38,310 nucleotides of DNA. Source: a phage. The translations under genes and the position numbers were made by a program. Below the pieces are notes generated by a model. The model worked only from the letters and a program-made list of their open reading frames with translations. It did not search any database and was not told where the DNA came from. This document shows, in pieces, positions 1-38,310 of the stretch (positions are counted from its first letter, which is position 1; each line of letters opens with the position of its first letter). Location: the sequence record PX946180.1; one strand, written 5' to 3'.

Positions 1-857
1 GGGCATATTCGCAAGCAGGAGATTCCAGAGGTTCGACTCAAATCCTGATTAGTGATTGCCACACCGGCGATAACACTAAGATTGATATTTACGTGTACAA
101 CGAAATCGGAAGCCTGTCTGAGATACTGATATCCAACCCTATGGTGCGAAGAACCACGCAACCAGATGGTGCCGTAATAGCCCTTCAGGGGACTCGCGTA
201 AGCTGTAATGGTGGCAGCATTGTTAAGTCTGGCGACAGACTAACAGTACCGTGCTTCTCTCTGTTTAATACAGATAGTGCAGCTGTGCGTGGGGTTACAG
301 TTGGTAATGTGGGGCAATTCCTGAGTCAGTCAGGGGCTAACAACTCCCTTGTTGCTAACTGTACTGTGAACTGTAGCATTGTAGGAATAGGAGGGGAAGG
401 CACTACCTATGTAGGTAATAAATTCATTCATGGTGGTGCAGGCACAACAGATGTTGCAATTGATGCCTCGACATCTATTAACTATATTCTTTCCAATACC
501 TTCTCTGGTTTCTATCGTAATATATCTTGGAACTCACAAGCCATGAGTATTGTAGGTAATGTGAGTACAGGAACAACTGATGTATCATTGCGTATGTTTG
601 GGGATGGTATTCAGTTGCTAACCCATTCAGGTAATAAATGGGATGCGGCGAGTAACCCCGCCATCGTTGCTACAGTTAAACGTGAAGGATCCACTACCGC
701 TAAAGCTACCGCTTATGCTAGCGCAGCCCCTACTACCCTAACGTGGTCTATTGGTGACAGGGTAATCAATAATACCCCCGCTGTAGGTAGCCCGAAAGGT
801 TGGGTGTGCATCGCTTCCGGAACTCCTGGAACGTGGGTTAGCGAAGGTAATTTGTAA
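1..857 (+). CDS. tail fiber/tailspike, 3' part (continuation of the ORF starting at 36692 across the contig overlap); beta-helix depolymerase-like C-terminal region
   Basis: Same reading frame as 36692..38310 once the 127-bp terminal overlap is collapsed; Gly/Asn/Thr/Ser-rich repeats typical of right-handed beta-helix tailspikes; stop codon ends at 857. Confidence 0.85.
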   Translation, partial: AYSQAGDSRGSTQILISDCHTGDNTKIDIYVYNEIGSLSEILISNPMVRRTTQPDGAVIALQGTRVSCNGGSIVKSGDRLTVPCFSLFNTDSAAVRGVTVGNVGQFLSQSGANNSLVANCTVNCSIVGIGGEGTTYVGNKFIHGGAGTTDVAIDASTSINYILSNTFSGFYRNISWNSQAMSIVGNVSTGTTDVSLRMFGDGIQLLTHSGNKWDAASNPAIVATVKREGSTTAKATAYASAAPTTLTWSIGDRVINNTPAVGSPKGWVCIASGTPGTWVSEGNL

Positions 858-1947: not shown

Positions 1948-2374
1948 TTACTACAAAGTGGACCAGGCGAGTCCATCCGGTCTGGTCTCCGTTAGGACTG
2001 GAAAGCCTGTGGGGACGTTAAGTCGGATGGGATATTGGATAGTACAGACACGAAGTCTAGGCAGTAAGCGGGCACATCGCGTGATATGGGAACTAACCAA
2101 TGGTCCTATACCACATGGTATGCAAATAGACCACATCGACAGGAATCCCAGCAATAATACCTTAAGTAACTTACGGCTCGTTACTGCCGCTGAGAACACT
2201 TGGAATACTGGTAGCCATTATGACTCTAAGACAGGAGTGAAGTGCGTTACCCGTCACCAGAATGGTTATAGGATTCAGGTTAAACGCGGTAATGTCTATA
2301 TGCGAACAACACGTCCTACTTTAGAGGAGGCTATCTCTGTCCGGGACCTAATGCTGGAGGGACTCTATGTCTAA
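1937..2374 (+). CDS. HNH homing endonuclease (HNH_3 motif plus AP2-like DNA-binding region)
   Basis: 145 aa; motif [37 protein letters not shown]; overlaps Rz stop and large terminase start; T7 has no gene here. Confidence 0.85.
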
Positions 2375-4133
2375 GAAAACACCTGTTGAAAGACAGGCAG
2401 AAATGACCCAAAGGATGAGGGACGATTTCGTGTTCTTCATCTTCGTTCTCTGGAAAGCTCTTAGCCTTCCGGTTCCAACCCGCTGCCAGATAGATATGTG
2501 TAAGAAGCTGGCTGCTGGGGATAATCGCCGCTTCATCCTTCAGGCGTTCCGTGGTATTGGCAAGTCGTTTCTGACCTGTGGTTTCGTGGTCTGGAAACTA
2601 TGGAACAACCCAGACTTGAAGTTCATGATTGTGTCGGCCTCAAAGGAACGAGCCGATGCGAACTCCATCTTCATCAAGAGAATCATCGACCTCATGCCTC
2701 AGCTTCAGGAACTCAAACCTAAGCAGGGACAGCGAGATGCGGTTATCAGCTTCGACGTTGGGCCAGCCAAGCCAGACCACTCACCTTCTGTTAAGTCCGT
2801 TGGTATCACTGGTCAGTTGACTGGTAGTCGTGCTGACATACTGATTGCAGATGACGTGGAGGTTCCTAATAACTCTGCGACTCAGGCTGCACGAGACCGT
2901 CTGTCAGAGCTTGTGAAAGAGTTCGACGCTATCCTGAAGCCGGGAGGTACAATCATCTATCTGGGTACGCCTCAGAACGAGATGACCCTGTATCGTGAGC
3001 TGGAGGGTCGCGGCTATACGACGACTATCTGGCCTGCACGTTACCCTCGAGATAAGAAGGACTGGCAGTCTTACGGCGACCGTCTGGCTCCTATGCTTCA
3101 GGCAGAGCTGGAAGAGGACCCTGAATCCTTCTACTGGCGTCCGACCGATGAGGTACGATTCGATGATACGGACCTGAAGGAACGTGAGCTGTCCTATGGT
3201 AAGGCTGGCTTCGCGCTACAGTTCATGCTTAACCCGAACCTGAGTGATGCTGAGAAGTACCCTCTGAAGCTCCGTGACCTTATCGTAGCCGACTTGGACC
3301 CAGCGTCCAGCCCAATGGTCTACCAATGGTTGCCAAACCCTCAGAACAAGCGTGAGGACGTTCCTAACGTTGGACTCATGGGTGACTCATACCACACGTA
3401 TCAGACTGTAGGTTCTGCCTTCAGTTCGTACACCCAGAAGATTCTGGTCATTGACCCTAGTGGTCGTGGTAAGGATGAAACTGGTTATGCGGTACTGTAT
3501 CAGCTAAACGGCTACATCTTCGCTATGGAAGTTGGTGGTATGCGTGGTGGTTATGAAGACTCTACGCTGGAAGCCTTGGCTAAGATTGGTCGTAAGTGGA
3601 AGGTCAACGAATACGTCATTGAGGGTAACTTCGGTGATGGTATGTACCTTGAGCTATTCAAGCCTGTAGCGGCACGTATCCATCCTGCTGCTGTAACTGA
3701 AGTGAAGAGTAAGGGTCAGAAAGAACTCCGCATCTGTGACGTTCTGGAGCCTATCATGGGGTCTCACCGACTTATCGTTAACGCTTCTGCTATCGTCCAA
3801 GACTACCAGACAGCCTCTGATAAGGACGGCGTTCGTAACCCTATCTACTCTCTCTTCTACCAGATGACACGTATCTCTCGTGAACGTGGAGCCTTGGCAC
3901 ATGATGACCGACTTGATGCTCTGGCTATAGGTGTACAGTTCTTCGTTGAGTCTATGGCTAAGGATGCCAACAAAGGCGAACGTGAAGTCACTGAGGAGTG
4001 GCTGGAGGAACAGATGGAGAACCCACGGAAAGGCTTCGAGTCCATCCACACTGAGTTCTGGGACAATGGTGTCCGGGTAACTCACGATACGGGCGATGAG
4101 CTTGGGCTAGGGTCATACGTTACGTTCCACTAG
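2367..4133 (+). CDS. terminase large subunit (T7 gp19-like)
   Basis: 588 aa, collinear with recalled T7 gp19 (586 aa); Walker A-like GIGKS and nuclease region present. Confidence 0.95.
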
Positions 4134-4227
4134 CTGAATGAATAACTATAGGTGAAAGCTGCATGAATACGCAGTTAGTAACCTATAGTTACTACCAGTC
4201 TAACCTACTGTTTTACAAGGAGTTTGG

Positions 4228-4250
4228 ACTTAACTATCACTATAGGGAAG
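4228..4250 (+). promoter_or_regulatory. phage RNAP promoter (phiOR-like), +1 G at 4245
   Basis: TTAACTATCACTATAGGGAAG matches the window consensus; sits between terminase and the genome-end region as T7 phiOR does. Confidence 0.7.
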
Positions 4251-4430
4251 ACCCCCGGTTACTTATAGTATTACTGTAGTGAATATACATATGCAGACTT
4301 TATGCAAGACCTTAGGAGGCAGACTCCGAGTTCTTACCTAAGGCTTGCACCGATGGAAGGAGGGTGATATTAATCATAATCCCTCCAATACAGATAGTCA
4401 CCGACCATAGATACAGGAGGTATGTAGCAT

Positions 4431-4589
4431 ATGGCAAAGACCAAAGCTGTACTCAAAGCTCTGGCGACCAATCGAGCTACATACAGGTTTCTTGCTGCTG
4501 TTCTACTTGCTTCTGGCGTTACTGCTGGAAGTCAGTGGGTCGGGTGGGTCGAGACTCTCGTATGTTCTCTGGTGTCTCAGTGTAATTAA
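4431..4589 (+). CDS. small hypothetical membrane protein (gene 19.5 position)
   Basis: 52-aa ORF with AGGAGG 10 nt upstream and a hydrophobic core; below the 60-aa tracker threshold; preferred over the overlapping tracker ORF 4364..4585. Confidence 0.4.
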   Translation: MAKTKAVLKALATNRATYRFLAAVLLASGVTAGSQWVGWVETLVCSLVSQCN

Positions 4590-4865
4590 TGCAATCATGG
4601 TAACGATTCATGAAAGGAGGTAATATGATTGGTTATGGCGAAGGATGAAGAGCTAAGGTCAGTACGTGGATAAAGACTCACTCTACTGACCTTAGCTACT
4701 GTAGTCAAGGACTTTAGGTAACACCCTTCAGGCTCTCACTTCTGGTCTACCTACTGATTGGTTCACTGGTCGTCATCCGATGGCATTAGACCTACGGTCC
4801 TTGACCTACAGTAGCTGGCTCCTAAGGAGGGACGATGAGTTTTGGACCAAAAGTTTGAGACCACA

Positions 4866-5636: not shown

Positions 5637-6143
5637 ATGGAACGTAACGCTAACGCATACTATGACCTGCTGGCTGCAACCGTTAAAGCATTTAACGAAC
5701 GTATTCGGTCCGACGAAATAGCTGAAGGTGATGACTACCACGATGCGCTGCATGAAGTCGTAGACGGTCAGGTTCCGCTCTATTACCACGAGATTTTTAC
5801 GGTGATGGCTGCTGATGGCATAGACCACGAGTTCGAAGACTCTGGGCTGATGCCTGAGACCAAGGACGTAACGCGCATACTGCAAGCTCGCATCTATGAG
5901 GCACTGTATAACGACGTGTCTAATAGCTCGGATGTGGTCTGGTTTGAGGCTGAAGAGAGCGACGAAGGGGATAAGTATTGGGTAGTTGACGCTAAAACGG
6001 GACTATTCGTTGAGCAAGCTGTACCTCTTGAGGTCGCTATTGCATCTGCCAAAGACCTCTATGCGGTAGGTCATCACATGAAAGTCGAAGACATTAACGA
6101 TAACGTAGTGTTCGACCCTGCGGCTGAAGAGGACTGCGAGTGA
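5637..6143 (+). CDS. ocr: Ocr-like anti-restriction DNA mimic (gene 0.3) with extra ~65-aa C-terminal extension
   Basis: 168 aa; VPLYYHEIFTVMAADGIDHEFEDSGLMPETKDVTRILQARIYE closely matches recalled T7 Ocr core; first gene after the early promoter region. Confidence 0.85.
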   Translation: MERNANAYYDLLAATVKAFNERIRSDEIAEGDDYHDALHEVVDGQVPLYYHEIFTVMAADGIDHEFEDSGLMPETKDVTRILQARIYEALYNDVSNSSDVVWFEAEESDEGDKYWVVDAKTGLFVEQAVPLEVAIASAKDLYAVGHHMKVEDINDNVVFDPAAEEDCE

Positions 6144-6301: not shown

Positions 6302-6464
6302 AGGTTCAATCATAGAGTATCGTTGTGAACAAGGTTATAACCTGAAAGGTAAGGTGTCTCAGGTCTATACTTCAGTAACAGGTAAGCGCTGCGTGGAGCT
6401 GACAAGTGGTGTGCGGATAGGTCTACATGAATGTAGGCTGCTGAATAAGCCAAGAACTGAGTGA
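6291..6464 (+). CDS. hypothetical early protein (57 aa; tracker ORF 6276..6464 trimmed to internal ATG)
   Basis: ORF in tracker list; GAGG about 10 nt upstream of ATG 6291; overlaps previous ORF. Confidence 0.4.
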   Translation: MITEGSIIEYRCEQGYNLKGKVSQVYTSVTGKRCVELTSGVRIGLHECRLLNKPRTE

Positions 6465-6467
6465 TAG

Positions 6468-6506
6468 ACGAGAGGTCATCGACTGATAGGTGGCCTCAAA
6501 GATTAC
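6468..6506 (+). promoter_or_regulatory. R1.1-like RNase III element (R0.5 position)
   Basis: GAGGTCATCGACTGATAGGTGGCCTCAAAGATTA, a diverged copy of the motif at 1423/9884/17126. Confidence 0.4.
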
Positions 6507-6530
6507 CACTTACATTGATAGGAGTTAACT

Positions 6531-6698
6531 ATGAAATTTACAGTCATCGCGCTTTACGTCACCATCATTCTGTCTTGGCTGACTGCGGTCATAGCCGATG
6601 GGAATGCACTACGCCTTGGTTGGCTGGCAGTTGATATCATATTCTCTCCGGCAGGGGTAGTGAGGGGCATCTTGATGTGGTTTGGATTGGCGGGATAA
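6531..6698 (+). CDS. small hydrophobic early protein (55 aa)
   Basis: GGAG RBS 7 nt upstream; sequence MKFTVIALYVTIILSWLTAVIA.. is predicted membrane-spanning. Confidence 0.5.
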   Translation: MKFTVIALYVTIILSWLTAVIADGNALRLGWLAVDIIFSPAGVVRGILMWFGLAG

Positions 6699-6701
6699 AC
6701 T

Positions 6702-6899
6702 ATGAGTCTTGCACTATTGATAGCCATAGGCTATGGACTTATCGCCTACGTGCTGGTGAGAGACATCAACAAAGCGCGTAAAGTCTACAACTTCAATTAT
6801 GTACGCCTGGGCCGCTGGACTGTGCGTCAACCTAACGGGCGTTTCATGCGCAACCTCGCGAACGTCTGGGATATAGCAACTCTTGGGAGCAAACTGTAA
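6702..6899 (+). CDS. small hydrophobic early protein (65 aa)
   Basis: Tracker ORF; N-terminal TM segment MSLALLIAIGYGLIAYVLV; tightly packed with neighbours. Confidence 0.5.
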   Translation: MSLALLIAIGYGLIAYVLVRDINKARKVYNFNYVRLGRWTVRQPNGRFMRNLANVWDIATLGSKL

Positions 6900-7256: not shown

Positions 7257-9104
7257 ATGAGCGTCATCTCTATTGACAAACACGACTTCTCTGATGTGTC
7301 GAACGCCATTGAGCCGTTTAACCTGCTGGCTGACCACTACGGGCAAGACCTCGCAGTAAAGCAGCTTCAGCTTGAGCATGAGGCATACACTGAAGGCGAG
7401 CGACGTTTCATCAAGAACCTTGAGCGCCAGACTGAGCGCGGGGAACTGGCAGACAATCAGGTCGCCAAGCCTTTGATGCAGACTCTGGTCCCGACCATCG
7501 CTAAGGCTTTCCGTGAGTGGCATGAAGGCCCGGACGGTAAGTCCTCGACCTCTCGTCCAAGCGTAGCGTTCACCATGCTGAGCACTGACGAGAAGGCTGT
7601 CAAAGACCGCTCTCTGCTCATCTCTGCGGAGTCTGCTGCGGTCATCATACTGAAGGTCATTCTCAGCAAGCTGGTCAAGCCTGAAGGCATCCCGATAACT
7701 CCTATGGCGTCCGCGATAGGTCGAACACTGGAAGATGAAATCCGCTTTGGTCGCATCCGTGATCAGGAGAAGGAGCACTTCAAGAAGGCGATAGCTGAGA
7801 ACCTGAACAAGCGCGCAGGGGTATCCTACAAGAAAGCCTACATGCAAGCGGTTGAGACCTCCATGTTGGAGCAAGGCCAACTGGAAGATGCCTGGGGAAC
7901 TTGGAGTCCGACCGAGGCGGTCCATGTTGGCATCAAGATGCTTGAGATTGTCATCCAGTCTACTCAACTGGTAGAGCTTAAGCGTTATGGTGCTGGCAAT
8001 GCAGCGGCGGACGTTGAGATGGTCCACCTGTCAGACTTCTGGGTCAAGAAGATGGCTCAGCGTGGCTTCTCTCTTGCGGGAATCGCTCCAGTCTACCAGC
8101 CATGCGTAGTTCCGCCTAAGCCGTGGACCGGGGTGGTGGGTGGTGGGTACTGGGCTAAAGGCCGAAGACCACTACCACTGATTCGCTTAGGGTCTAAGTC
8201 TGCGGTGGCACGTTACGAAGATGTATACATGCCTGAAGTCTACGACGCTGTGAATATCATTCAGAATACACCTTGGAAAGTGAACAAGAAGGTTCTGAAC
8301 GTGGTGAACATGGTCGAGAAGCTGAACAACACGCCTATTGATGACATCCCTCAGATGGAACCGCTGAAGCCTGAGGACTATGCGGGTGAGACTGAAGAAG
8401 AACTTAAGGCATGGAAGAAAGCTGCTGCCGGTATCTATCGCCGCGAGAAGGCCCGACAGTCACGAAGATTGTCACTGAGCTTTATCGTTAACCAAGCGAA
8501 CAAGTTCTCTCAGTTCAAGGCTATCTGGTTCCCGTATAACATGGATTGGCGAGGTCGTGTCTACGCTGTCCCGATGTTCAACCCTCAGGGTAACGACATG
8601 CAAAAGGGACTCCTGACTCTGGCAGTCGGTAAGCCTATTGGTGCTGATGGTTTCAAATGGCTGAAGGTACGCAAGAAGGATACCACTCGTCTGAACCTGA
8701 TGTTCTTAGGGTCATTCAACCTTCAGCCTACAGTCAACAAAGGCGCGAAGAAAGAGCTTGACAAACACAAGCAGGAGTCAGGTATTAGCCCGAACTTCGT
8801 CCACTCACAAGATGGCAGTCACCTCCGCAAGACTGTAGTCCACACGCACCGCAAGTATGGCGTGATGTCGTTCGCAGTGATCCACGATAGCTTCGGGACC
8901 ATCCCGGCTGACGCTGAGTATCTGTTCCGTGGTGTCCGTGAGACGATGGTCGAGACCTACCGCGACAACGATGTGCTGCTTGACTTCTATGAGCAGTTTG
9001 AATACCAGCTTCATGAGAGCCAGCGCGACAAGCTGCCAGAGCTTCCGAAGAAAGGTGAACTGAATATCGAAGACATCCTGTCTTCAGACTTTGCATTCGC
9101 TTAA
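7257..9104 (+). CDS. T7-like single-subunit RNA polymerase with ~268-codon internal in-frame deletion (catalytic motifs A and B missing; probably non-functional)
   Basis: 615 aa versus 883 aa for T7 RNAP; N-terminal ~464 aa and C-terminal ~151 aa are collinear with T7 (promoter-binding domain, specificity loop, HKQESG..FVHSQDGSHLRK, IHDSFGT, terminal FAFA); junction GFKWLK/VRKKDTTRLNLMFLG at about 8664-8669; no DGSCSG or TLAYGS motif anywhere in the ORF. Confidence 0.85.
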   Translation: MSVISIDKHDFSDVSNAIEPFNLLADHYGQDLAVKQLQLEHEAYTEGERRFIKNLERQTERGELADNQVAKPLMQTLVPTIAKAFREWHEGPDGKSSTSRPSVAFTMLSTDEKAVKDRSLLISAESAAVIILKVILSKLVKPEGIPITPMASAIGRTLEDEIRFGRIRDQEKEHFKKAIAENLNKRAGVSYKKAYMQAVETSMLEQGQLEDAWGTWSPTEAVHVGIKMLEIVIQSTQLVELKRYGAGNAAADVEMVHLSDFWVKKMAQRGFSLAGIAPVYQPCVVPPKPWTGVVGGGYWAKGRRPLPLIRLGSKSAVARYEDVYMPEVYDAVNIIQNTPWKVNKKVLNVVNMVEKLNNTPIDDIPQMEPLKPEDYAGETEEELKAWKKAAAGIYRREKARQSRRLSLSFIVNQANKFSQFKAIWFPYNMDWRGRVYAVPMFNPQGNDMQKGLLTLAVGKPIGADGFKWLKVRKKDTTRLNLMFLGSFNLQPTVNKGAKKELDKHKQESGISPNFVHSQDGSHLRKTVVHTHRKYGVMSFAVIHDSFGTIPADAEYLFRGVRETMVETYRDNDVLLDFYEQFEYQLHESQRDKLPELPKKGELNIEDILSSDFAFA

Positions 9105-9395: not shown

Positions 9396-9866
9396 ATGTT
9401 CGGTAAGTCAAAACTTGAAGCACAAATCGTAGAGTTGAGCATGAAGGTGGCATACTTGGAGCGAGCCGTAAAGGTCCGGGATAAGGACAACGAGAGACTG
9501 AAGGCTAAACTTGCTGAATCAGAGCGTAAGCGCCTAACGCCACCAGCGGCTGTAACTGTCAAGCGTATGGTCGGCATCAAGTTCAAGGAACTGTTCGACG
9601 GTAAGTATCAGCCCACTGAGTTCAAGATAGGTCTTGGAAAGTGTGGAAAGGTGGTTCACTACTTCGAGGTGACTAAGCGTGACTACCTGACGATTACCAT
9701 CCACCAGTACCACACAGACGGGTCATCTAAGGACTTTGAGTATCGACTTAGCGACATCGACGGTCGTATACAGTACGACTACGAGCCGATGCAGGTCTAC
9801 GGTGAGGAGGCAGAGCAGGAACGTATAGTCCAAGCCTTCCGCAACAGACCACGATTCGTACCCTAA
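9396..9866 (+). CDS. hypothetical early protein (156 aa), N-terminal coiled-coil
   Basis: Tracker ORF; GAGG RBS; charged heptad-like N-terminus (KLEAQIVELSMKVAYLERAVKVRDKDNERLKAKLAESERK); no recognised homolog. Confidence 0.6.
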   Translation: MFGKSKLEAQIVELSMKVAYLERAVKVRDKDNERLKAKLAESERKRLTPPAAVTVKRMVGIKFKELFDGKYQPTEFKIGLGKCGKVVHYFEVTKRDYLTITIHQYHTDGSSKDFEYRLSDIDGRIQYDYEPMQVYGEEAEQERIVQAFRNRPRFVP

Positions 9867-10405: not shown

Positions 10406-11472
10406 TGACAACGACTATCAAAACTAACCCACACCGAGCTGTAGATTACTCTGAGTCTGGCGTTAAGAAAGCGCTGGAAGCTGCTGGGTCGCTGGAAGCT
10501 GAAGTGAAGTACGATGGTGTCCGGTTTAATCTTCCGGTCTTCCCTACTGGTGAGACTCAATGGTTGAGCCGTGAGTCCAAAGAGCTTCCAGCGCTTCAGC
10601 ATCTGAAGTCAGAACGTGGGAGTCCTACCGAATTAACAAACCGTGGAGACTGGCGATGGTTCCTTAAACAGGCTGGCTACGAAGGTACGGGCCTGATGAT
10701 TGACGGCGAGGTCATGGTTCCTGCAACCGACTTCAACACTTCCTCAGGTCTAATCCGTACCATGTGGTCAGACACTAAGAACTACGCTTGGAATGGCAAC
10801 CCCGATGCTGACATCGACACCAAGAAGAAGCATAAGGTCCCTTTCCATCTGGCAACCGACCACATCCGCGTGGTTGTCTACGGGGTCATCGACCTTAACG
10901 TCATCCTCGACCCGAAAGCCGAAGGTCCCATCCATAGCGTCACACGCCTGAAGGCCGAAGCTATCGTCCCTCTCCTCCAGAAATACTTCCCGGAAATCGA
11001 CTGGGTTCTGTCTGAGTCACACACGGTCTATGACCTTGAGTCGCTCAACTCCCTGTACGAAGAGAAGCGTCTGGAAGGACACGAGGGTCTGGTAGTCAAG
11101 GACCCACTTGGTAAATATAAGCGTGGCAAGAAGTCAGGCATGTGGAAAATGAAGCCTGAGGAGACCATCGACGGGACCGTGTGTGGACTCGTGTGGGGGA
11201 CTCCGGGTAAGGCTAACGAAGGCAAGGTAATTGGCTTCGAGGTTCTGCTTGAGGATGGCATGGTGGTTAACGCCTGTGGTCTGACTGAAGAGCAGAAGGA
11301 TGAGTTTACGGAAGCCTGTAACACTGATACATATATTCTCGGTGGAATCAATCCATACGAAGGCTGGCAGTGCGAAGTTCTCTTCATGGAGCGGTTCCCT
11401 GATGGCTCCCTTCGCCACCCTAGCTTCAAGTGCTGGCGTGGAACGGAAGACAATCCAACCGTTAAGAGCTAA
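10390..11472 (+). CDS. ATP-dependent DNA ligase (T7 gp1.3-like); true start may be the ATG at 10405
   Basis: Adenylation motif EVKYDGVR, IKTNP, KPEE.IDG.V.GLVWGT.G.ANEGKVIGFEVLLE and C-terminal DGSLRHPSF..RGTEDNP all match recalled T7 ligase. Confidence 0.95.
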   Translation: MEQIIMTTTIKTNPHRAVDYSESGVKKALEAAGSLEAEVKYDGVRFNLPVFPTGETQWLSRESKELPALQHLKSERGSPTELTNRGDWRWFLKQAGYEGTGLMIDGEVMVPATDFNTSSGLIRTMWSDTKNYAWNGNPDADIDTKKKHKVPFHLATDHIRVVVYGVIDLNVILDPKAEGPIHSVTRLKAEAIVPLLQKYFPEIDWVLSESHTVYDLESLNSLYEEKRLEGHEGLVVKDPLGKYKRGKKSGMWKMKPEETIDGTVCGLVWGTPGKANEGKVIGFEVLLEDGMVVNACGLTEEQKDEFTEACNTDTYILGGINPYEGWQCEVLFMERFPDGSLRHPSFKCWRGTEDNPTVKS

Positions 11473-11605: not shown

Positions 11606-11860
11606 ATGTTTAAGAACTTAATGTTCAATCGTTATACCAGTACATTCCACCTGTCTCACAACCCGTTCGCTTGCATTAAGCGTAACGAGAAGCTGGGCTA
11701 CTTCGGGAAGGCCGTTAAGCTGTCACCTACAGTCTTCGCTCTCATTACTCCGGGCAAAGCTGAAGAGGCTCGCCAGAAGCGTGAGACCAACGTACCTGTG
11801 GTCTACACCAAGTGGCCTCGCGTTCGTCTGTTCGTTGAGTTCGTGAAGGAGGTGTTCTGA
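11606..11860 (+). CDS. gp1.6-like protein
   Basis: 84 aa; C-terminal WPRVRLFVEFVKEVF resembles recalled T7 gp1.6 end FPFVRLLLKRIKEVF. Confidence 0.7.
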   Translation: MFKNLMFNRYTSTFHLSHNPFACIKRNEKLGYFGKAVKLSPTVFALITPGKAEEARQKRETNVPVVYTKWPRVRLFVEFVKEVF

Positions 11861-12432
11861 TGACTCCTTATGATAATATGATCATCAAGCTAATCGATAT
11901 GAACGACGGTAAGCCAGACCATTTATATAACTGTTCCTTCGAGTGTGCTGGAGTTCCTTGTAACATCTGCCCCGCTAAGGATGATGACGATATGACCTTA
12001 GGTGAAATCCGAGCGATGGACCCACGTAAGCCCCATCTGAATAAACCAGAGGTAACTCCCCCAGATGAACAGCCTTCCACTGAGTCACACAGCTGCGAAA
12101 GTATGTGCAACTGTGAGCGGGACTATGATACAAGCGATGGACATGCCTTGGATTGTACTATCCACAACGCCACTGCCCCAGTAAATACAATCGAAGGTGT
12201 CACTAAGCCTTCCCATTACATGCTGTTCGACGACATTGAGGCCATCGAAGTGATTGCCCGTTCAATGACTCGTGAACAGTTCAAAGGGTACTGCTTCGGT
12301 AACGTCCTGAAGTATCGACTCCGGGCTGGTAAGAAGTCCGAGCTGGCTACTATGGAGAAGGACCTGAACAAAGCAGCCTTCTATCAGGAGCTGTTCGACC
12401 TACATAAAGGTAAGTGCTATGCTGCCGAGTGA
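11860..12432 (+). CDS. gp1.7-like nucleotide kinase
   Basis: 190 aa; Cys-rich N-terminus and C-terminal FKGYCFGNVLKYRLRAGKK motif as in recalled T7 gp1.7. Confidence 0.75.
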   Translation: MTPYDNMIIKLIDMNDGKPDHLYNCSFECAGVPCNICPAKDDDDMTLGEIRAMDPRKPHLNKPEVTPPDEQPSTESHSCESMCNCERDYDTSDGHALDCTIHNATAPVNTIEGVTKPSHYMLFDDIEAIEVIARSMTREQFKGYCFGNVLKYRLRAGKKSELATMEKDLNKAAFYQELFDLHKGKCYAAE

Positions 12433-12510
12433 GTGGTGCCGGGAGATGTATGAGAAGACCCTCAACCCGGACTACATTACGTTATACAACCAATGGAAGG
12501 AGCGCGGTTT

Positions 12511-12669
12511 ATGACTGAGGTTGAGAAGAAGTACATCGTGGAGCTTGAGGGTCGCGTTCAGTCCTTCGAGGTTCCGGTGTACGCAAAATCTCTTGAAGAG
12601 GCTACCCTGAAGTCCCAAGAGTATGAGGACGCTGGGTTTGTGGTCGGACGGATTCGTCCTGAGACCTAA
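12511..12669 (+). CDS. gp2-like inhibitor of host RNA polymerase
   Basis: 52 aa; [15 protein letters not shown]...[10 protein letters not shown] matches recalled T7 gp2 (HSFEVPIYAETLDEA...AGFEVTRVRP). Confidence 0.8.
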
Positions 12670-12687
12670 ACTATCACTGTAGGACAG
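12665..12687 (+). promoter_or_regulatory. phage RNAP promoter variant (phi2.5-like), +1 G at 12682
   Basis: CTAAACTATCACTGTAGGACAG, one substitution in the TATA core. Confidence 0.6.
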
Positions 12688-12726
12688 ACGTCCAGTTCGT
12701 AACTTTAAATTAGGAGATTTACACCG

Positions 12727-13425
12727 ATGGCTAAAGAGCAACTGAAGACTTTCACCACTCCGGTAGCTGGTATCGTTGAGCCTTACGCATGGCTGAACAA
12801 AGCAGACACCAAGTTCAACGAGCGTGGTGAACATAAGGTTAACCTGACTTTCAGTCTGGATGACCCGAAGGTCCGTAAGATGATTGATGTCTTACAGAAG
12901 ATTCACGACGATGCGTATGCGAAAGCACTCGCAGACCACGAGAAGAACCCACCTCAGGTTAAGCGTGGCAAGAAGCCTATTGAACCACGAGAAGGCGACA
13001 TGCCGTGGATTGAGAATGGTGACGGTACTGTTACCCTTAAGTTTAAATGCTTTGCGTCTTACCTGAAAGACGGCAAGTCCGAGCCTATCGTATTACGGTT
13101 CTACGACACAGATGCTAAACTCATCCGTGACGTCCCGAATATTGGCGCTGGGTCTAAGCTGAAGGTCAAGTTTAAAGTCCTGCCGTTCAAGTGGAACGCT
13201 GCGACTGGTGCAAGCGTTAAGCTCCAGCTTGAGTCCTGCCTTCTGGTAGAACTGAAGGAGTGGAAAGGTGATGGTACTGGTGGCGATGGTGGCTGGGGTG
13301 ATGATGAAGACCTTGGTACTGGCTACAAAGCGTCAACCGATGGTGACTTCAATGGCGATAGTGGCTTCGGTGAAGATGCCGAGGGTGGTGATGACTCTGA
13401 GTCCGGTGGCGATTACGACTTCTAA
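12727..13425 (+). CDS. single-stranded DNA-binding protein (T7 gp2.5-like)
   Basis: 232 aa; GDMPW..NGDGT.T.KFKC.AS, GSKLKVK, ASVKLQLES motifs and acidic C-terminus ending in F, as in recalled T7 gp2.5. Confidence 0.95.
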   Translation: MAKEQLKTFTTPVAGIVEPYAWLNKADTKFNERGEHKVNLTFSLDDPKVRKMIDVLQKIHDDAYAKALADHEKNPPQVKRGKKPIEPREGDMPWIENGDGTVTLKFKCFASYLKDGKSEPIVLRFYDTDAKLIRDVPNIGAGSKLKVKFKVLPFKWNAATGASVKLQLESCLLVELKEWKGDGTGGDGGWGDDEDLGTGYKASTDGDFNGDSGFGEDAEGGDDSESGGDYDF

Positions 13426-13427
13426 TC

Positions 13428-13880
13428 GTGGCTGCATGGACACAAAAACGGGGGCACTCTGTGGGTGCCTACCGCTCTGGACTTGAGGCCAAGAACCAGC
13501 AGTGGCTGGAGCAGAATGGCGTCAAAGCGGAGTACGAAAGCCATTATATCAACTATGTGATTCCGGCTTCCGACCACAAGTACACACCAGACTTCATCCT
13601 TCCGAACGGAATCATCGTCGAGACCAAAGGTATCTTCGACAGTGAGGACCGTAAGAAGCACCTTCTGGTACGAGAACAGCACCCAGAGTTAGACATCCGG
13701 TTCGTGTTCTCAAGTTCCCGCTCCAAGCTATACAAAGGGTCTCCGACCACGTATGGCGCATGGTGCGAAAAGAACGGATTTAAGTTTGCCGACAAGTTCA
13801 TCCCGGTTGAGTGGCTGCGAGAGGCGACTGTACGTCTGCCTTCAGGCATACTCATTCCAAAGAAGAAAGGAGTTAAGTAA
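13428..13880 (+). CDS. endonuclease I, Holliday junction resolvase (T7 gp3-like)
   Basis: 150 aa; YVIPAS.H.YTPDF.LPNGI.VETKG...DRKKHLL.REQHPELDIR.VFSSSR.KLYKGSPT.YG matches recalled T7 gp3. Confidence 0.95.
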   Translation: MAAWTQKRGHSVGAYRSGLEAKNQQWLEQNGVKAEYESHYINYVIPASDHKYTPDFILPNGIIVETKGIFDSEDRKKHLLVREQHPELDIRFVFSSSRSKLYKGSPTTYGAWCEKNGFKFADKFIPVEWLREATVRLPSGILIPKKKGVK

Positions 13881-14371
13881 TGAGCAAGAAGTTTAAACTG
13901 TCAGTAAATACGTGTGGCTGGCCTCGTGGGACCATCGTTACCAAGTGTGAGAAGGATCCCAGCCCATATCCGCACATGACCCTAGTTGAGTGCCACACTC
14001 CAGGCACCTACAAAAACGGGTCTAACGGCCACAATACTCAGCCTGATGGTATGTGGGGAGCATGGGTCTATGATCATGAACTTGAGGAAATAAAGCAGGA
14101 AGAGAAACTCACTGGTGTACAGACCACTCAGGTCCTGCCAGCCTCAAGCGTCCCTCCTGTCACCGTTAAACGCGAAGTCCTGACCATCGACAAGATTGGT
14201 GTAGGACAAACGTTCATCGTCCATGGTAAACCTGAGGAAGTTTACGTGAAGATTAGCAACTCACACGTCTTCAACCATAAGCGTCTCCAGATGCACACCA
14301 CGGATGCACAGCGCTTCACCCAGCACCTGAATCTGGTGGTAGTAGAATTGGTGGTGTACAATGGTAAGTAA
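13880..14371 (+). CDS. hypothetical protein (163 aa) inserted between endonuclease I and lysozyme
   Basis: Tracker ORF; start overlaps gp3 stop; no T7 counterpart at this position and no recognised domain. Confidence 0.6.
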   Translation: MSKKFKLSVNTCGWPRGTIVTKCEKDPSPYPHMTLVECHTPGTYKNGSNGHNTQPDGMWGAWVYDHELEEIKQEEKLTGVQTTQVLPASSVPPVTVKREVLTIDKIGVGQTFIVHGKPEEVYVKISNSHVFNHKRLQMHTTDAQRFTQHLNLVVVELVVYNGK

Positions 14372-14819
14372 GGTACAGTTCAACCCACGGTCCCGGACTG
14401 ACGCTATCTTCGTTCACTGTTCGGCTACCAAGCCAGAGATGGACATCGGGGTAGAGACCATCCGTATGTGGCACAAGCAGCAAGGCTGGCTGGACGTAGG
14501 CTACCACTTTATCATCAAGCGCGATGGTACTGTTGAAGAGGGTCGCCCTGTCAACGTAGTAGGGTCACACGTTAAGGACTGGAACTCACGGTCTGTAGGC
14601 GTCTGCCTTGTAGGTGGAATTGATGCTAAGGGTAAGTTTGAAGCTAACTTCACTCCGGCCCAGATGGACTCCCTGCGCAACAAGCTGGCTGACCTGAAGG
14701 TCCTGTATCCTCAGGCAGAAATCAAAGCACACCATGACGTAGCACCGAAGGCGTGTCCAAGTTTTGACTTGCAACGCTGGCTATCTACCAACGAACTGAG
14801 GACTTCCGACCATGGATAA
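14361..14819 (+). CDS. lysozyme / N-acetylmuramoyl-L-alanine amidase (T7 gp3.5-like)
   Basis: 152 aa; TDAIFVHCSATKP, WLDVGYHFIIKRDGTVE.GR, GVCLVGGID.KGKF.ANFTPAQM and HH.VAPKACPSFDL match recalled T7 lysozyme. Confidence 0.95.
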   Translation: MVSKVQFNPRSRTDAIFVHCSATKPEMDIGVETIRMWHKQQGWLDVGYHFIIKRDGTVEEGRPVNVVGSHVKDWNSRSVGVCLVGGIDAKGKFEANFTPAQMDSLRNKLADLKVLYPQAEIKAHHDVAPKACPSFDLQRWLSTNELRTSDHG

Positions 14820-14904
14820 AATAGACTTTATGCTTATCGTTCTGTTATCAGGAGCAATCACCTTCGTAGGATGGTGGTTCTTCCCTGAACACTTTGAAAT
14901 CTAA
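14812..14904 (+). CDS. small hydrophobic peptide (30 aa)
   Basis: ATG overlaps lysozyme stop, GAGGA 10 nt upstream; sequence MDKIDFMLIVLLSGAITFVGWWFF; below tracker threshold. Confidence 0.35.
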   Translation: MDKIDFMLIVLLSGAITFVGWWFFPEHFEI

Positions 14905-14918
14905 AGGAGAACAACTTA

Positions 14919-15134
14919 ATGATTAAACTCATCGAATTTCTTGGTCGTCTGGTGGTGCGTGGCTATCGTCGGGCTGCGGCTATGGAACGAAAGGTAGCAG
15001 CGAAGACTGCTGACGGTGCGGCTGATGCTGCTGCTCTGGCTGACAAACTGACCATCGCGTCACTGGAAGCTGGCATGAAGGCACGTCAAGCTGACACCAA
15101 AGCTGACCAGTTGGCTCAGTTCTTCAAAGACTAA
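14919..15134 (+). CDS. small conserved hypothetical protein (71 aa)
   Basis: Tracker ORF with AAGGAG RBS; N- and C-terminal motifs (LIEFLGRLVVRGY...QLAQFFKD) resemble a small T7 middle-gene product I recall only imperfectly. Confidence 0.55.
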   Translation: MIKLIEFLGRLVVRGYRRAAAMERKVAAKTADGAADAAALADKLTIASLEAGMKARQADTKADQLAQFFKD

Positions 15135-15152
15135 ACTATCACCTTAGGGATG
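15130..15152 (+). promoter_or_regulatory. degenerate phage RNAP promoter (phi4-like), +1 G at 15147
   Basis: CTAAACTATCACCTTAGGGATG, two mismatches to consensus in the -5 to -1 region. Confidence 0.45.
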
Positions 15153-15199
15153 GGACCATGAGTCCTGTCCCTTTGTTCGCATTTGTGATTAAGGAGTGA

Positions 15200-16903
<1,704 letters not shown>

Positions 16904-36691: not shown

Positions 36692-38310
36692 ATGTCCACG
36701 ATTACACAATTCCCTTCAGGAAACACTCAGTACAGGATTGAGTTCGACTACCTAGCCAGAACGTTTATTGTTGTTACGCTGGTGAATAGCTCTAACCCTA
36801 CCCTGAACCGTGTACTGGAAGTTGGTCGAGATTACCGATTCCTTAATCCAACGATGCTTGAGATGTTGGTTGACCAATCAGGTTTCGACATCGTTCGTAT
36901 TCACCGTCAGACTGGAACTGACTTAGTGGTAGACTTCAGGAATGGCTCAGTGTTGACAGCTAGTGACCTGACCAATGCAGAGCTTCAGGCTATCCATATT
37001 GCAGAAGAAGGTCGAGACCAAACTGTTGACTTAGCGAAGGAATATGCCGATGCTGCTGGTAACTCTGCTGGCAACGCTAAGGACAGCGAGGACGAAGCAC
37101 GCCGAATCGCTGAGAGTATCAAGGCAGCTGGTCTAACTGGCTATATTACCCGTAGATCCTTCGAGAAAGGCTTCAACGTTACAACATGGAACGAGGTCCT
37201 GCTATGGGAGGATGATGGTGAATATTACCGCTGGGATGGTACGCTCCCAAAGAACGTTCCTGCTGGCTCAACTCCTGAATCATCTGGTGGAATTGGATTA
37301 GGAGCGTGGGTTAGTGTTGGTGATGCATCGCTGAGATCTCAGATAGCCTCCGTAACCGGATTTAATCTTGTAGGTCAGGTGCCAGATGTAACTACATTAC
37401 GCAATACAGAACCGACAACAGACAGCAAGAGAATCCTCCTTCGCGAATACACAGCAGGCACAGGATATGGTGGCGGTCAGTTACGAGCAATCCTTGACGG
37501 AAGCTCTTACGTTGACAACGGCGTTACTGTGTTTAAAACAACTGGTGGTGCTGCATGGGTCCGCGTTAACGCAGATATCATTACATCCTTCATGGCGGGT
37601 GCTGTGCCTGATGCAGGTACTACTGATAACACGGCTGCTATTAATCGCTTCCTCGCCGCAGGTAAGAAATTGGTTATGAGGGATGGTATCTTTGGTCATT
37701 CTGGTCAAATTTCTTTGCAAACAGGTATATCTCTTGATTTATCTGGAGCGACAATAAAACCATCATCGACTCTACTCACCGCTGCTTGGGTGGGGAGCAA
37801 CTTGTTTGATGTAAAAATAACCGGCGGCGTGTTTGAAGGAACTGGCTTGGACAATACAGCTGGCAACGGCCATCTTTTGCTGCTTTCTAATTGCCAAGGG
37901 TGCTACGTAGATGGCACTACATTTACGAAATCTCCGCAGGATGGATTGCGATTTGTATCTTGTACACGATGTATTGCGAGTAACGCTATTTCGTACAACA
38001 ACCTTTCTGTAGGTATTCAAGACCGCGATGGGGATTACAACACTATCATTGGGTGTAAATGTAACGGTAATGGTAATACAGGAACGGTTGCTGGAGTTGG
38101 TGGTCGAGGTATTCTCACATGGCGTAGCTTTGGCACAAAAGTTATCGCCTGTGACGCGTTCAATAACACAGAGTATGGCATTCGGGCATATTCGCAAGCA
38201 GGAGATTCCAGAGGTTCGACTCAAATCCTGATTAGTGATTGCCACACCGGCGATAACACTAAGATTGATATTTACGTGTACAACGAAATCGGAAGCCTGT
38301 CTGAGATACT
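36692..38310 (+). CDS. tail fiber/tailspike, 5' part (T7 gp17-like N-terminal adaptor plus start of beta-helix domain); continues at 1..857
   Basis: ATG 36692 with AAGGAGG RBS; N-terminal ~150 aa resemble the recalled T7 gp17 tail-attachment domain (FDYLAR.F.VVTL, DYRF, LV.DF..GS.L.A.DL, HIAEE.RD); frame stays open to the window end and continues at position 1; total about 782 aa. Confidence 0.9.
   Translation, partial: MSTITQFPSGNTQYRIEFDYLARTFIVVTLVNSSNPTLNRVLEVGRDYRFLNPTMLEMLVDQSGFDIVRIHRQTGTDLVVDFRNGSVLTASDLTNAELQAIHIAEEGRDQTVDLAKEYADAAGNSAGNAKDSEDEARRIAESIKAAGLTGYITRRSFEKGFNVTTWNEVLLWEDDGEYYRWDGTLPKNVPAGSTPESSGGIGLGAWVSVGDASLRSQIASVTGFNLVGQVPDVTTLRNTEPTTDSKRILLREYTAGTGYGGGQLRAILDGSSYVDNGVTVFKTTGGAAWVRVNADIITSFMAGAVPDAGTTDNTAAINRFLAAGKKLVMRDGIFGHSGQISLQTGISLDLSGATIKPSSTLLTAAWVGSNLFDVKITGGVFEGTGLDNTAGNGHLLLLSNCQGCYVDGTTFTKSPQDGLRFVSCTRCIASNAISYNNLSVGIQDRDGDYNTIIGCKCNGNGNTGTVAGVGGRGILTWRSFGTKVIACDAFNNTEYGIRAYSQAGDSRGSTQILISDCHTGDNTKIDIYVYNEIGSLSEI
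38184..38310 (+). repeat. assembly overlap: exact copy of positions 1-127 (circular contig artifact)
   Basis: Direct comparison: 38184-38310 is identical to 1-127 and lies inside the tail fiber coding sequence. Confidence 0.9.

Follow-up and report, generated by a model that had tools for sequence, protein, structure and literature searches.

Gene 3.2 of Kayfunavirus phages: a conserved gene between endonuclease I and lysozyme with an apparently exchangeable N-terminal module

Gene 3.2 and its transcription unit

The stretch of DNA analysed in this study (referred to as the window; 38,310 nt, record PX946180.1) is an essentially complete, circularly permuted genome of a K1F-like, T7-type phage (Kayfunavirus). 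A megablast search with positions 12000-16000 revealed 92-94% identity to the Kayfunavirus genomes SP7, K1F, Baskent_phicoli_1 and Bas105. Since the same 127 nt are present at both ends of the window (1-127 and 38184-38310), the record represents a genome of approximately 38,183 bp that was circularised and permuted in assembly. Late genes precede the early region in this arrangement (terminase at 2367-4133, ocr at 5637-6143).

Gene 3.2 (13880-14371, + strand) was recognised in the ORF listing and by its matches to PHROG families and orthologues. It comprises 163 sense codons, starting with the ATG at 13880, and a stop codon at 14369-14371. It is preceded by gene 3 (13428-13880, +), encoding endonuclease I of the Phage_endo_I type (the Pfam assignment of gp3 was made on orthologues in related loci), and is followed by gene 3.5 (14361-14819, +), encoding an amidase/lysozyme of the Amidase_2 type. 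The junction of genes 3 and 3.2 reads ...GTTAAGTAATGAGC... and contains a fused stop/start (TAATG), in which the final A of the gene 3 stop codon (TAA, 13878-13880) is shared with the ATG of gene 3.2. The Shine-Dalgarno sequence read upstream of this ATG, AAGGAG (13867-13872, +), is located within the 3' end of gene 3, at a spacing of 7 nt from the start codon. At the opposite end, the last 11 nt of gene 3.2 overlap the start of gene 3.5, whose ATG is at 14361. Both the presence of a 163-aa ORF between the endonuclease I and lysozyme genes and its overlaps with the two neighbours, as described in the initial annotation, were confirmed in the ORF listing and in the sequence. Because gene 3.2 overlaps both neighbours, it is plausible that its translation is coupled to that of gp3 upstream and of the lysozyme downstream.

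The gene had also been considered as an addition relative to T7, and this proved correct: T7 genes 3 and 3.5 abut at position 10706 with nothing between them, and T7 carries no gene 3.2. The T3 record gives a similar indication, as the amidase match there extends into the region annotated as gene 3. No RNA family of Rfam was matched within positions 13300-15300, and a repeat scan of positions 13300-15000 detected no repeats, including any flanking gene 3.2.

Transcription units of the window can be delimited with the aid of a repeat family, CTAAACTATCACTATAGG(G/A), which is presumably the set of phage-RNAP promoters. Eight copies start at positions 4229, 9863, 12666, 15131, 24036, 25016, 29348 and 36624; more promoter-like copies begin at approximately 7165, 11556 and 21214. 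The copy upstream of gene 2.5 (CTAAACTATCACTGTAGGACAG; 12666-12688, +) and the next one, upstream of gene 4 (15131-15153, +), bracket genes 2.5, 3, 3.2, 3.5 and 3.7. Because no further promoter-like copy occurs between these two repeats and no intrinsic-terminator-like site was found on the + strand of positions 13036-15131, co-transcription of the bracketed genes is plausible, which supports the initial proposal that gene 3.2 is transcribed together with its neighbours. Elsewhere among the class II genes, the ORF at 11860-12432 (190 aa) matched DUF3310 and that at 9396-9866 (156 aa) matched the T3 gene 1.05 family, both of which are uncharacterised.

A separate observation concerned the phage RNA polymerase gene (7257-9104, +), which encodes only 615 aa, compared with 893 aa of K1F gp1. 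Residues 1-471 and 738-893 of K1F gp1 align to the window polymerase in the same frame, and approximately 834 nt (K1F 3979-4813) are missing, with a clean junction near position 8670 (...AAGGTAC followed by GCAAGAAGG...). The in-frame deletion takes out a central segment of the polymerase and, judging from the alignment, would be expected to inactivate the enzyme. Possible explanations are an assembly artefact, an engineered phage, or a genome that is defective or depends on a helper.

Distribution and modular architecture of the gp3.2 family

The window protein matches phrog_16385 over its full length (residues 1-163, E 7e-94) and phrog_15211 over residues 94-163 (E 5.7e-40), both of which are labelled "unknown function". 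Its full-length amino acid identity is 93% to gp3.2 of Escherichia phage EcoDS1 and 81% to that of Escherichia phage K1F; these two orthologues occupy the same position and overlap their neighbours in the same way. A further orthologue, that of Cronobacter phage Dev2 and of SH4, differs in consisting of the 74-aa C-terminal domain alone; it was named gp3.2, with no function given, in the SH4 genome paper (PMC4925675). Homologues were detected by tblastn in 221 GenBank phage records, e.g. EcoDS1, K1F, LM33_P1 and CR44b (in which the gene is designated 3.01), and more than 250 database proteins are homologous to gp3.2. The gene family is therefore not new: its annotation goes back to the K1F and EcoDS1 genomes. 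The initial annotation had left room for a widely conserved gene-3.x family of known function. Wide conservation, under the name gp3.2, was indeed found, as was the presence of the gene in relatives and its absence from T7; the known function was not, and our search of the literature, covering gp3.2/gene 3.2, Kayfunavirus and screens for accessory or anti-defence genes, yielded no functional study, in keeping with the label of unknown function in the initial annotation.

When the window lysozyme was used as the tblastn query, 216 records were obtained at an identity of at least 80%, and about 1650 at lower identity. From the similar numbers of records (approximately 221 versus 216) it follows that the phages carrying gp3.2 are roughly those with a Kayfunavirus-type gp3.5. 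Gene 3.2 lies between genes 3 and 3.5 in the window, K1F, Vec13, SH4 and STP-SP4, as well as in the distant loci L005, L008 and L009. When 1.84 billion cluster representatives were searched exhaustively with an HMMER profile, only 17 clusters were returned, restricted to phages, with no relatives beyond the gp3.2 family; the most distant clusters (P0129, P0130 and P0135) come from T7-like contigs, in which the gene is again placed between the Phage_endo_I and Amidase_2 genes. A word-indexed search with the distant C-domain profile returned 8 close members and missed the distant ones. Gene 3.2 therefore marks the genus as a whole, in a fixed syntenic position, and is not a sporadic insertion.

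Two phages were observed to have an additional ORF separating gene 3.2 from the lysozyme gene. In the Salmonella phage STP-SP4 (L003) this is a 149-aa ORF (1784-2233), unrelated to gene 3.2, which resembles an HNH-type homing endonuclease (a call made by eye from the sequence, not by an HMM). In L005, a distant T7-like metagenomic phage, it is a 118-aa ORF (6456-6812) with no Pfam family.

Sequence comparison within the family points to a ~70-aa C-terminal domain as its constant core (residues 95-163, corresponding to phrog_15211; 14162-14368, +), a small predicted beta-barrel with the motif Y..ISNSHVFN....QMHTT...RF. The window contains the full invariant form, Y-x3-SNSH-x-FN-x4-Q-x-H-x-T-x3-R; residues Y122, S126, N127, S128, H129, F131, N132, Q137, H139, T141 and R145 are invariant even at 34% identity. 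The domain is mildly basic in most members (pI 9-10), with a pI of 6.3 in P0135, and the protein, which contains no hydrophobic segment, is described from its sequence as soluble.

The C-domain is joined to the N-terminal module by a conserved Pro-rich peptide, VLPASSVPPVTVKR (residues 85-98; 14132-14173, +). It is encoded by nine distinct DNA versions, whose 11 variable sites are all third-codon positions and leave the amino acids unchanged. It was found alongside N-modules A, B, C and E, is absent from the 74-aa stand-alone forms, and is predicted by AlphaFold2 to be disordered (pLDDT <60). This pattern of substitutions marks the segment as a conserved, apparently functional peptide rather than a neutral spacer.

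The N-terminal part of the window protein (residues 1-72; 13880-14095, +) is a module that we designated type A, with the signature GWPxGTIVTKC...QPDGMWGAWV. Unrelated N-modules are present in other phages: type B in Vec13, type C in STP-SP4 and MII_004, type D in L017 and L024, and additional types in P0124, P0129 and P0135. Some phages carry double modules (A+B or A+C, giving proteins of 220-227 aa), and others have no N-module, as in the 74-aa SH4/Dev2 forms and 13 of the 22 IMG/VR loci. Coverage of the type A query reached 80% or more in only 55 of the 221 GenBank records. Comparison with Vec13 placed the borders of the exchange: the two nucleotide sequences are ≥90% identical as far as about position 13870, drop to approximately 30% identity over 13880-14130, and recover to ≥83% from 14137. 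Phages with flanking genes 97-100% identical can differ by replacement of the whole N-module, and on these comparisons the module behaves as a cassette that is exchangeable among otherwise near-identical phages. The type of N-module has no obvious association with host genus.

Exchange also appears to have occurred on a finer scale. In codons 24-53 (13956-14040), module A of the window differs from that of L010 at 17 of ~20 synonymous and 23 of ~70 non-synonymous sites, with dS saturated within this patch and the flanking codons nearly identical. Such a distribution indicates fine-scale mosaic recombination, with import from a divergent lineage.

The alternative N-modules form no family of their own in a PHROG scan, and a search with N-module B retrieved one odd protein only, P0143 (98 aa, from a ~40 kb Logan contig). 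This protein consists of N-module B and a VLPASSVPPVTV linker, continues with RLPSGILIP..., the C-terminal tail of endonuclease I, and has no gp3.2 C-domain; it may be the result of a rearrangement at TV(K)R microhomology or an assembly chimera. In a paralogue test, hhalign aligned only 17 columns of N-module B with the C-domain at 28% probability, too little for us to claim an internal duplication.

Predicted folds and selection

Structure prediction and a structural search had been proposed as a check in the initial annotation, and these gave a fold class for the protein. Using a 45-sequence alignment, AlphaFold2 modelled residues 1-70 as a five-stranded barrel (pLDDT 88-95), with values below 50 for the C-terminal half. 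When residues 81-163 were run alone with a more diverse 29-sequence alignment, the core of the C-domain reached pLDDT 86-93 and comprised six strands and a short helix. The N-module is a confidently predicted five-stranded small barrel with structural matches to SH3 domains, and on these models the whole of gp3.2 would form two small beta-barrels, of which the C-terminal one is tentatively placed in the same SH3-like class. Foldseek searches of BFVD returned members of the family, followed by many uncharacterised phage proteins of 70-85 aa. These beta-barrels (e.g. from Escherichia phages 172-1, ECBP2 and EP335) resemble gp3.2 in predicted fold and size (E 3e-3 to 5e-2, TM 0.5-0.66), but differ in sequence (10-17% identity, no common motif) and in genomic context, and are likewise uncharacterised.

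At the sequence level, searches of Pfam, NCBIfam, PADLOC and PDB sequences with the window protein and nine variant architectures produced sub-threshold noise only (DUF3748, at 16.7 bits against a cutoff of 27, and fragments of Cas6 and DruB). The window protein matched none of the SH3, SH3b, KOW, Tudor and FeoA families of Pfam above the gathering threshold, no known defence-system protein of PADLOC, and no anti-defence family among the several covered by Pfam and PHROGs. The SH3-like assignment is therefore one of predicted fold class and not of membership in an SH3 sequence family. The fold predicted for the N-module, and tentatively for the C-domain, is that of eukaryotic SH3 domains, FeoA and the C-terminal SH3-like domain of DtxR/IdeR. 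Like DtxR, gp3.2 combines an SH3-like barrel with a conserved Pro-rich peptide of its own, and by analogy this suggests a possible mode of peptide docking, either intramolecular or to a partner.

The two parts of the protein evolve at different rates. Constraint acts on the C-domain as a protein, because its median dN/dS is ~0.13 at a dS of 0.3-1.3 (Nei-Gojobori); N-module A changes more rapidly (dN/dS 0.26-0.46 in comparisons with unsaturated dS). Among 31 related loci, the identity of the C-domain to that of the window tracks gp3, gp3.5 and gp4 (in the most distant phage, 43% for the C-domain compared with 67% for gp3, 54% for gp3.5 and 50% for gp4). These values point to strong purifying selection on the C-domain, which changes at about as slow a pace as gp3, gp3.5 and gp4. 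Its variants do not co-vary with those of gp3 or gp3.5 across the 31 loci.

Possible roles of gp3.2

The conserved synteny is compatible with the suggestion of the initial annotation that gp3.2 might modulate gp3 or gp3.5 or act on the host. The idea of an obligate partner encoded by a neighbouring gene is weakened, because no co-variation with gp3 or gp3.5 was observed and ORFs are tolerated between genes 3.2 and 3.5. Our preferred, still tentative reading (probability roughly 0.45) is that gp3.2 would be a non-enzymatic binding or adaptor protein, with the constant C-domain serving as a dock and the variable N-module providing interaction. We infer such a role because the protein has neither a catalytic-family signature nor a conserved set of metal ligands and its predicted fold class is mainly a binding one. 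Docking would involve the invariant polar patch of the C-domain (SNSH.FN / QMHTT / RF), perhaps with the Pro-rich peptide as well, and a partner shared by the whole genus, which might be a class II protein of the phage or a universally conserved host machine. The swappable N-barrel would add or tune a second, strain-variable and probably host-directed interaction. In a more specific version, which we regard as rather unlikely, gp3.2 would be a plug-in adaptor of a type not recognised before in T7-type phages. The C-barrel and the Pro-rich peptide would form an anchor, with the phage RNAP-lysozyme complex or the replisome as candidate sites, and the N-barrels, exchanged through recombination with breakpoints precisely at the stop codon of gene 3 and at the linker, would bring in or inactivate host factors that differ between strains, for instance defence proteins. 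If this were true, the locus would form a compact unit that determines host range inside the cell.

Several other explanations were weighed against the adaptor role. The cassette swaps between phages with 97-100% identical flanking genes, the fine-scale mosaicism within module A and the confinement of the family to phages (17 clusters in 1.84 billion representatives) would all suit a protein dedicated as a whole to anti-defence or host takeover, with N-module diversity as the product of an arms race. We consider this doubtful, since typical anti-defence genes occur sporadically, whereas the strongly conserved core is found throughout the genus; 13 of the 22 IMG/VR loci have no N-module at all, module type shows no obvious link with host genus, and no support was found in the literature. 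Similarly doubtful is a nucleic-acid-binding helper of DNA metabolism, in which a basic C-barrel (KOW/Tudor/L2/EF-P-like) would assist or restrain the co-translated endonuclease I: a basic charge is not a constant feature of the family (the C-domain of P0135 has a pI of 6.3), R145 is the sole invariant basic residue, and no known nucleic-acid-binding family was matched. The proximity of the amidase gene recalls lysin subunits of the PlyCB/PlyCA type, in which a small non-catalytic protein likewise adjoins and is co-expressed with a peptidoglycan hydrolase. It is nevertheless improbable that gp3.2 is a separately encoded wall-binding or regulatory subunit of gp3.5, in the style of a two-component endolysin. 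It has no homology to PlyCB/PlyCA and no SH3b Pfam match, the host is Gram-negative, ORFs are inserted between genes 3.2 and 3.5 (the HNH ORF of STP-SP4 and the 118-aa ORF of L005), and relatives with a similar amidase lack gene 3.2 (T7 and T3 use an enzyme of ~68% identity with no such partner). Enterobacterial peptidoglycan is uniform, which would moreover leave the variable modules unexplained.

The invariant S-N-S-H / Q-M-H-T-T patch could also be read as the site of a small ligand or a metal, e.g. in a sponge for signalling nucleotides; this too has little likelihood, given that no homology to a known sponge or metal-binding family was found and that the genus-wide, core-like distribution is atypical of sponges. 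A zinc-binding protein had been hinted at by the Cys/His-containing strings CGWPRG, CEKDPSPYPH and ECHTPG. These are present, and the window protein has C12, C23, C37, H32 and H39, but they do not amount to a conserved Cys/His metal site: C23 alone is the same in all 45 homologues, Ala usually stands in place of C12 and Ser in place of C37, H32 and H39 vary, and the other N-modules and the 74-aa forms have no such residues. Zinc binding is accordingly very improbable. Least probable of all is a chance ORF or a recent mobile insertion such as a homing endonuclease, to which the location between genes that abut in T7 bears some resemblance. A run of 163 consecutive sense codons has a chance probability of ~4e-4, homologues number more than 250 among database proteins and are encoded in 221 phage genomes, and dN/dS reveals purifying selection; conservation is genus-wide, flanking repeats are lacking, and there is no match to HNH, GIY(-YIG) or LAGLIDADG nucleases. 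Conservation, selection and the lack of a nuclease match led us to reject the zinc-binding, homing endonuclease and chance ORF readings alike, and the ORF at 13880-14371 is a genuine protein-coding class II gene.

Gene 3.2 is among the few genus-defining genes by which K1F-like phages differ from T7 and T3; the K1F-like phages have uses in therapy and engineering. To its earlier annotation the present analysis adds a domain architecture, a conserved peptide, cassette behaviour with mapped recombination breakpoints, a selection pattern and an invariant core surface. If the N-modules do not target host factors, gp3.2 would simply add to the small accessory-like proteins that make up phage dark matter. 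If they do, the locus would provide a handle for understanding or engineering post-adsorption host range in Kayfunavirus.
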